Origin: Eledone cirrhosa
Taxonomy: Eukaryota
NCBI GenBank assembly: GCA_964016885.1
Contig: OZ024746.1
Span: forward strand, 60,140,001-60,204,000
Reading direction: 5' to 3'
Length of the DNA stretch: 64,000 nucleotides
Below are positions 11,063 to 11,277 of this stretch, one piece after another. Position 1 is the stretch's first letter, and every line of letters starts with the position of its first letter. The notes under the pieces were generated by a model, which worked only from the letters and a program-made list of their open reading frames with translations, had not been told where the DNA came from and made no database searches. The position numbers and the translations under genes are program-made.

Positions 11063-11064
<2 letters not shown>

Positions 11065-11273
11065 CGAAGGAAGTGTGGTAAGGAACCAGGTGGACCATAA
11101 CGTACCAGAGTCTTCAATACTTAGGGTAGTAGAGTGGGTAATAGGAAAATGTTCAAGACCCCGACGGCAGAGCTCAAGCCGTTTCGACGGCTATTTCTGG
11201 ACTAAATTAGTCTAATTTAGTCCAGAAATAGCCGTCGAAATGGCTTGAGCTCTGCCGTCGGGGTCTTGAACAT

Positions 11274-11277
<4 letters not shown>
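11063..11277. mobile_element. Hairpin insertion, family H1 (probable PLE 3' end fold-back)
   Basis: 66-bp arms 11145-11210 / 11212-11277, ~80 nt unpaired tail on the left, (TA)n on both sides. Confidence 0.8.

Follow-up and report, generated by a model that had tools for sequence, protein, structure and literature searches.

How does a DNA hairpin come to carry the same half of a hammerhead ribozyme twice, head to head? The question is raised by a palindrome of about 200 bp at positions 11063 to 11277 of the window (the whole 64-kb stretch of Eledone cirrhosa DNA that was analysed). A sequence-only reading of this DNA had taken the arms for the ends of a Penelope-like element (PLE), and had proposed that the nascent cDNA snaps back on helix II of the ribozyme and primes itself, so that the ribozyme fold sets the truncation point. 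Here we report an analysis of the palindrome, its sister copies and its parent element, and weigh this proposal against other explanations.

Two copies of half a hammerhead

The inverted repeat is borne out: two 70-nt arms (11141–11210 and 11212–11281) are 97% complementary, with two mismatches and a 1-nt spacer. An 80-nt extension (11062–11142), hereafter referred to as the tail, lies on the left side only and is sense on the minus strand; it is optional in the family, and in the parent it occupies the interval between the two putative RT start sites. Target microsatellites of the (TA)n type flank the insertion on both sides (10989–11061 and 11278–11330). Both arms correspond to the 3′ half of a type I hammerhead, in which the GAAA, GUC and GGGGTC elements named by the sequence-only reading could all be located. 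With positions numbered from the G of the catalytic GAAA, the tailed left arm (11141–11210, minus strand) has GAAA at 11185–11182 and GUC at 11165–11163, and its inner end lies at −25. The tail-less right arm (11212–11277, plus strand) reads, in order, the end of loop II, the helix II 3′ strand, GAAA (11237–11240), helix III, GUC (11257–11259) and the helix I 3′ strand, which includes GGGGTC (11260–11265); its outer end coincides with the putative RT start site 1. A slightly mutated first copy of a small hairpin motif (RCTCY-N-WHGAGYRCT) occupies 11109–11135 on the minus strand, just 3′ of that site. The core box 3–9 and the 5′ strands of helices I and II are absent from both arms, an Rfam search of the 64-kb window gave no hammerhead at the gathering score, and neither the ORF nor the 3′ UTR of the parent lies within the window.

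The 1-nt spacer at 11211 forms the apex. It had been placed within helix II; in the parent, this position falls inside loop II, at a distance of 26 nt on the 5′ side of the catalytic GAAA. Beside it lies an initiator-like hexamer, TTAGTC (11217–11222, plus strand), in which A11219 is position −18, its mirror on the minus strand being the A at 11203. This copy is atypical of its family, in that its arms reach −25/−26, 7–8 nt beyond the usual inner end on both sides.

The sister copies named earlier are present, all on the plus strand. They comprise an older-subfamily stub with an inverted partial tail and a tail-less arm (15975–16100); a hairpin with the commonest junction of the family, its tail-less arm reaching −18 and its tailed arm −12 (~32351–32545); a divergent-subfamily hairpin with both arms ending at about −19 (~56655–56840); a hairpin whose tailed arm runs to −18 and is followed by an extra C and ~25 nt of filler (~56851–57057); and an asymmetric hairpin with a shortened tailed arm and a tail-less arm to ~−17/−19 (58523–58689). 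A tail-only remnant of the same family lies at 19419–19486 (plus strand). An assembly artefact was rejected, as the arms at 11062–11277 differ at two positions and the centres differ among copies.

We counted such stubs in 80 evenly spaced 10-kb stretches (800 kb) from contigs C1–C4 of the 3.0-Gb assembly. Their density was ~36 per Mb, which, scaled from 29 elements and if these contigs are typical, corresponds to ~109,000 copies genome-wide (95% interval 73,000–156,000). Subfamily-specific patterns had 8,785 (subfamily A) and 1,841 (subfamily B) exact matches genome-wide, and reversed-pattern controls had none, which puts the family far above chance. The stubs are a sizeable genome component that could be misfiled as MITEs or miRNA-like hairpins; the best weak Rfam match to one stub was a miRNA model.

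The parent element and its ribozyme

The inner extension of the longest arms has 736 matches, many of them inverted pairs 0.4–3.8 kb apart. Among the loci with long copies, L086–L088 contain ORF pieces with YRDD and NVIY..AYIG, the latter in a C-terminal endonuclease-like domain, so that the longer copies with a PLE ORF anticipated by the sequence-only reading do exist: they combine an RT and GIY-YIG ORF with a whole hammerhead. The parent element is roughly 2.8 kb long and is inserted in (TA)n (repeat-to-repeat spacing is 2,834 nt in L088, the ORF of which has a deletion), and TA flanks occur at copies throughout. Partial tandems of the pseudo-LTR, an inverted 5′ copy and an optional tail are seen in L086–L090. 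The tail runs unbroken into the 5′ UTR and ORF in L088, L329 and L331; as L088 shows, the 5′ UTR therefore begins with the tail. Only three matches were obtained with a subfamily A pattern in which the tail continues into the 5′ UTR.

The encoded protein carries RLRWR and SDKTGN (L087), CNCPDRSTC (L086 and L087) and CNLC-SEE..LLNK..CKH, and CCHH appears by eye to be absent. Its 954 homologues include some with precomputed PF00078, and one of them, P0089, matches GIY-YIG at E = 3.7e-4, below Pfam's cut-off; the family's own protein had no significant match in Pfam or the PDB. By its motifs, its length below 3 kb and its (TA)n targets, the parent matches an EN+ PLE of the Hydra-clade kind, an assignment drawn from sequence motifs. 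An earlier assignment to the Neptune clade was replaced on the motif evidence. We also rejected a non-LTR retrozyme, defined by head-to-tail tandem units with a complete hammerhead in each (bioRxiv 10.64898/2026.07.22.740005, in its available text); the copies here are dispersed head-to-head stubs without a core.

Endonuclease-domain remnants of more distant families with the same CxCx5C linker lie beside long copies at L088:6835–7864 (minus strand; weak GIY-YIG match, E = 0.0058) and L087:6457–6771 (plus strand). Separately, four identical long-copy matches on contig C2 (338,328,830, 338,373,056, 338,417,023 and 338,461,791) share one strand and a spacing of ~44 kb; they represent a tandem segmental duplication or a collapsed array.

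All parts of a type I fold are present in the parent repeat, namely helix I, the TTGA(N)AA box, helix II with a bulge, GAAA, helix III and GUC. Loop II is ~33 nt long, helix III is a full stem of 4–5 bp, and helix II is formed by a 3′ strand from −1 to −11 and a 5′ strand from about −45 to −56. Because the core boxes and part of helices II and III were imposed by the pattern used in the search, evidence for the fold comes only from the partner strands. Among 29 long copies, 88.9% of cells are paired (helix I 89.7%, helix II 84.6%, helix III 96.5%), and three pairs of helix II are changed on both sides between subfamilies. The 3–8 core pair, which differs by subfamily, is U-A in 24 of the 29 long copies (L269–L298) and U-G in three, with C and A unpaired in two and C3-G8 in none. 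The minimum free energy (MFE) folds had z scores of −2.3 and −3.2, and none of the 80 Rfam matches (E up to 5) in three long-copy loci belonged to a hammerhead family. The parent hammerhead is a U3-A8 variant with the core UUGANAA, as judged from its sequence, and its cleavage is putative; in some lineages, the copies that spread may have carried an impaired or inactive ribozyme.

The 5′ half that the sequence-only reading had found missing from the stub is indeed absent there, but the core expected in its place, CUGANGA, is not that of the parent. Matches to CTGANGA within 5–35 nt of an arm numbered 18, none of them an intact ribozyme, and all seven matches to CTGANGA followed by a perfect helix II strand lie in an unrelated repeat. 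An antisense hammerhead, suggested by CTGATGA on the opposite strand of two copies, was rejected: this box is a point variant of CCTGGTGA (exact in 10 of the 736 matches).

Arms stop at a fixed wall in loop II

The apex was expected to be non-random, and it is strongly so. For subfamily A we took the first 100 of the 8,785 exact matches to an outer-arm pattern, picked regardless of apex; the end samples of subfamilies A and B both come from contig C1. The inner ends form a sharp peak, with 23 arms ending at −18 and 14 at −17, five at −19 and four at −16. Shorter arms number 39, and beyond this wall are four arms at −20/−21, five at −23 to −48 and six that run past the core. Genome-wide, 658 arms past the core compare with 8,785 arm matches, an approximate ratio given the differing patterns, and in the even 800-kb sample 2 of 40 arms pass the core (some '−25' inner ends in that list are chance alignments). 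Subfamily B, which has a different loop II, also has its mode at −18 (5 of 29 arms), with a blurrier wall: 8 of 29 ends at −16 to −20, 14 shorter and 7 beyond. Locus L327, a duplicate of L326, was left out of this tally.

These ends bear directly on the snap-back at helix II, according to which the cDNA crosses loop II, pairs its copies of the two helix II strands and primes itself there. Helix II is real and covaries, which speaks for the proposal. Yet the product that it predicts for subfamily A, a full loop II with a restart at GAAA, has no match in the assembly at up to one mismatch, against 736 arms that run through most of the loop, and it is seen in none of 36 inspected loop-spanning arms. 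Because this junction is absent and most cDNAs, about 90 of 100, stop before the 5′ strand that would be needed, the snap-back is refuted for subfamily A, and as a general account we give it next to no chance. Nor, most likely, does the ribozyme fold set the truncation point; 37 of 100 arms stop at −17/−18, at the hexamer TTAGTY in loop II.

TTAGTY spans −20 to −15 and is kept in 27–30 of 30 long copies at each position, with variation at −21 to −23; other positions of loop II (−24, −27 and −31, 28 of 30 each) are as well conserved, a point against a special role for the hexamer. It fits the initiator hexamer TYAGTY, with A(+1) at −18; this consensus is that of Drosophila promoters (PMC6483594, in the text available). 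The arms thus point to an initiator from which the transcript would start at −18. A G lies just 5′ of −18 in 18 of 28 arms ending there, of which 8 are explained by the partner arm and ~9 are apparently untemplated; an untemplated G is the base expected from a cap template, which is weak evidence. A transcript start inside the pseudo-LTR has precedent in D. virilis Penelope (PMC2377424, in its available part). Two other causes of the wall were rejected. A splice acceptor, TTTAG|T, would give ends at −16 with a shared leader, and only 4 of 100 arms end at −16; the ribozyme cut site, for its part, is at +22.

A start within loop II may be peculiar to this family, because the 15 of 80 related loci that have a hammerhead by descriptor show a canonical CUGANGA core and short loops without a TTAGTY-like hexamer.

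An alternative would keep two-site priming and joining but have the RNA extend further 5′, as a tandem, read-through or circular transcript, with RT stalled at −17/−18 by the folded ribozyme or by a protein bound to loop II; in this form the earlier idea that the ribozyme determines the stop would survive. The wall does lie inside the hammerhead, whose helix II covaries between subfamilies, and in the predicted fold of subfamily A position −18 falls 3–4 nt into a weak 7-bp inner stem of loop II, so that a stall there is conceivable and counts against the run-off that we propose; circular or more-than-unit templates have also been suggested (PMC4209133, in its available text). However, an RT at the wall has already passed helices I and III and the entire 3′ strand of helix II, without any pile-up at the helix II base. 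Subfamily B has the same mode, and there TTAGTT is mostly unpaired in two of three folds. The stop also coincides with the +1 A of the initiator consensus, and an extra G is enriched at −19. We regard a stall as unlikely, and favour run-off at the 5′ end of the RNA.

Two outer sites and a single tail

The outer ends of the arms lie at two fixed sites, about +40/+43 and +123; in both cases, a copy of the small hairpin motif follows 3–8 nt further 3′. The motif is found at +48 (L330) and +126 (L329 and L330), its second copy lying just beyond the end of the tail and being absent from stubs, so that an RNA priming a tailed arm must extend into the 5′ UTR. As the pattern for a tail continuing into the 5′ UTR has so few matches and the second motif lies beyond the tail, the stubs would derive from the first 140 nt of the transcripts of a few source copies.

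The motif recurs in related elements. In 50 of 80 loci from metagenome contigs, namely those with enough DNA upstream of the ORF (5 of 55 listed were dropped as too short), it is present there in two copies in 25, in one copy in 14 and in none in 11, whereas 50 control stretches within the ORF and 50 from the opposite strand contain none, the pattern (RCTCY-N(5-16)-WHGAGYRCT) having been drawn from a subset of the same loci. By eye, the insertion ends just before a motif copy in L372, L375 and L405. For this group of PLEs, the duplicated hairpin is a candidate for the RNA handle used in RT priming. In loci L332–L411 it precedes the ORF by 35–140 nt, and TA-rich DNA lies immediately 5′ of every copy; in the family of this genome its outer stem pair is A-U, not G-C.

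One-tail hairpins combine one arm from each outer site. Exactly one tail is present in 73 of 74 two-armed hairpins and none in the other; two-tailed cases seen by eye are L005 and L250. Both arms belong to the same subfamily in all 75 labelled hairpins (22 of 97 were unlabelled), with at least seven subfamily labels represented, a concordance that fits one RNA source. In 60 one-tail hairpins of subfamily A we also scored by eye which arm reaches deeper, counting differences of at least 3 nt: it is the tail-less arm in 22 hairpins and the tailed arm in 19, and the remaining 19 have arms of near equal depth. The partner consists of tail only in 6 of the 60, all among the 22 with a deeper tail-less arm, and in L254 this partner begins exactly at the first base of the tail. 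Three junctions (L214, L219 and L198) join arms that both end at −17/−18, with 0–2 nt between them.

Could a single cDNA run off or stall, fold on a mini-hairpin of 1–2 bp and copy itself, the asymmetry and the side of the tail arising from centre deletions or endonuclease trimming? About 15 of 74 junctions do share one register, in which C(−17) is paired with G(−14), the arms always belong to one subfamily, and self-priming has been proposed for the inverted junctions of PLEs (PMC3846280, in the part available). But a self-primed single cDNA cannot add sequence that it does not have, which requires either two cDNAs or a later revision of the centres; by itself it cannot give the 22 deeper tail-less arms or the six tail-only partners, including the one that starts at the tail's first base. 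A single tail in 73 of 74 hairpins would, moreover, need a second strand that stops exactly at site 1, and the three junctions with both arms at −17/−18 and 0–2 nt apart also speak against it. We consider self-copying of one cDNA improbable as the general route, and prefer two primers, although centre deletions after insertion could randomise which arm is deeper. Local snap-back of a run-off end on such a mini-hairpin probably makes some of the junctions.

A non-autonomous origin (MITE-, SINE- or retrozyme-like), in which a few masters already shaped as hairpins are copied in full, is very improbable. Such masters would explain the stereotyped outer ends and length, as well as the commonest junction, which occurs in 9 of 74 hairpins and recreates TCAGTC on one strand. 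Against this, the short recurrent classes do not cover 56 of 74 centres, centre length varies between 12 and 63 nt, arms match for each of at least seven subfamily labels, and the stubs have neither a second start motif abutting the tailed end nor a catalytic core. The present sample also suggests that junction types do not cluster by descent. The evidence instead upholds the earlier reading that the arms are PLE ends and that the palindrome is made anew at insertion.

A model for stub formation

A stub consists of two head-to-head pieces of the ribozyme-bearing end of a PLE. We consider it probable that it is formed when two nicked target strands prime at two fixed sites close to the RNA 5′ end and both cDNAs run off at the putative start of the RNA. 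In this model, the transcript would start at −18, at the TTAGTY initiator, bisecting the 5′ copy of the ribozyme and so precluding its cleavage in cis. The element protein, probably a dimer, would bind both hairpin motifs and prime from both target strands on one RNA (twin priming), both cDNAs would run off at the capped 5′ end, and their 3′ ends would be joined by microhomology, by filler DNA or by a short snap-back of one end annealing to the other cDNA. Twin priming leaves the tail-less bias of the commonest junction, where the tail-less arm is deeper in 7 of 8 cases, unexplained, and the copy at 11062–11277, both arms of which pass the wall, also counts against the model.

The long copies (6–8% of arms) would arise when the cDNA jumps to the 3′ repeat of the RNA in a strong-stop-like step that regenerates the promoter. 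The pseudo-LTR would then function like U3-R-U5, in which R, given an active ribozyme, would extend from −18 to the cut at +22. Cleavage there would shorten the 3′ copy to a 41-nt repeat that has lost its start sites. In L331, inspected by eye, three successive arms begin at ~−17, and one of these follows a jump into the 5′ UTR; this single case fits run-off followed by jumping. Read-through of tandem copies would likewise yield long arms, which counts against the jump.

Two familiar reactions resemble these steps in principle. In L1 twin priming, two target nicks that prime one RNA give an inversion, and in retroviruses minus-strand strong-stop DNA runs off at the 5′ end of the RNA and jumps through the terminal repeat, regenerating the promoter. 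The stub family differs from both in priming at two fixed structured sites near the RNA 5′ end, without poly(A) priming, a tRNA primer or an integrase. A bolder extension, which we put forward tentatively and hold to be possible but doubtful, is that PLEs replicate in a retrovirus-like manner at the target, with a dimer, two hairpin-marked priming sites, strong-stop cDNAs that end at a start within loop II, and a jump via the 41-nt repeat, bounded 3′ by ribozyme cleavage, without which neither the ORF is copied nor the promoter rebuilt, the 100,000 hairpins being failed jumps. If true, such a route would account at once for the tail, for inverted 5′ copies and pseudo-LTR tandems, and for what the hammerhead does. 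More generally, the stubs would record how these poorly understood elements copy themselves, and the family allows predictions at the level of single bases, namely that the 5′ end is capped at −18, that hairpins at +48 and +126 bind RT, that each target strand yields one cDNA and that a jump takes place between −18 and +22.

Relationship to known Penelope-like elements

The formation of pseudo-LTRs and inverted copies and the role of the hammerhead are declared open questions in several accounts (PMC8557442, PMC11167929, PMC3846280 and PMC2377424, as far as their available text goes). Inverted one-tailed PLE insertions, (TA)n targeting and the self-priming hypothesis are already known. In the open-access literature searched, we found no description of a fixed wall, paired start motifs, twin priming or strong-stop for PLEs; Fig. 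S2 of PMC11167929, on insertion ends, could bear on this.

The closest relatives appear to be the Hydra-clade PLEs with a C-terminal endonuclease, described in the available text as shorter than 3 kb, with a single ORF, RWK, DKT rather than DKG, a CxCx5C linker and (TA)n targets, and for which inverted 5′ copies and one-sided tails are in print (Craig et al. 2021, PMC8557442). The family described here shares with that clade RWR (RWK-like), DKT, CxCx5C, apparently CxxC and CxH around a conserved E and N, a GIY-YIG-like C terminus, a single ORF, a length below 3 kb, the (TA)n target and an inverted 5′ copy with a one-sided tail. It differs in its U3-A8 hammerhead with a loop II of ~33 nt, in place of a canonical one, and in a tail of 80 nt as against 30–40 nt, and the ~100,000 stubs with a single-base inner wall have no counterpart in the available part of that account.

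Biochemistry of the kind that two-primer synthesis requires has been demonstrated for the Poseidon protein of Anolis carolinensis, which nicks both target strands and extends them, starts RT at two internal sites bounding the tail and, by prediction, forms a dimer (Frangieh et al. 2024, PMC11167929). Ribozyme cleavage is dispensable in that anole reaction in vitro, which ribozyme mutations leave unaffected (PMC11167929). Poseidon shares with the stub family two RT start sites that bound the tail, AT-rich targets and a required RNA segment 3′ of the start sites, whereas it belongs to another clade, and the main text of PMC11167929 is silent on cDNA ends, inverted copies, an RNA 5′ end in the ribozyme and a duplicated hairpin motif.

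The sequence-only reading knew of no earlier description of its mechanism, but self-priming for PLE inverted junctions, on an antisense template, was proposed for Penelope of Adineta vaga (Arkhipova et al. 2013, PMC3846280, in the portion available). Like the stubs, those elements have head-to-head inverted pLTRs, junction palindromes, an optional tail at one end and Inr-like sequence in the pLTR; unlike that proposal, as set out in the same portion, the counts here favour two primers on sense RNA, ending at a fixed site. Metazoan PLEs with hammerheads are likewise on record, and the U3-A8 variant is among them, in Cercyon from Schistosoma (Cervera and De la Peña 2014, PMC4209133, from the text available). 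As described there, these hammerheads resemble the present ribozyme in being type I and in the pLTR, with U3-A8 covariation, a palindromic loop III and opposite-strand pairs 100–700 bp apart. The ribozyme described here differs in its full helix III and its long loop II with an inferred promoter, and the stubs keep only its 3′ half.

Other inverted repeats in the window

A second, unrelated hairpin lies at 11630–11998, with 184-nt arms that are 97% complementary around a 1-nt spacer. Inspection by eye places an entire minimal hammerhead, its core being CTGATGA, in each arm, and the apex roughly 90 nt 5′ of it; the hairpin is probably the stub of a different PLE family, with no fold at helix II. 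A third type, at 40834–41010, has 87-nt arms that are 97% complementary; its right arm appears by eye to contain a complete canonical type I hammerhead, the apex being at the CTGATGA box and the helix I 5′ strand. A U6 snRNA-like copy at 25936–26036 (plus strand) scores 46.5 bits against a gathering score of 44 and has several changes, and is probably a pseudogene. Finally, inverted arms at 6498–6768 and 7318–7588 (271 nt, 95% complementary, 549 nt between them) are possibly another inverted retroelement insertion or a TIR element.
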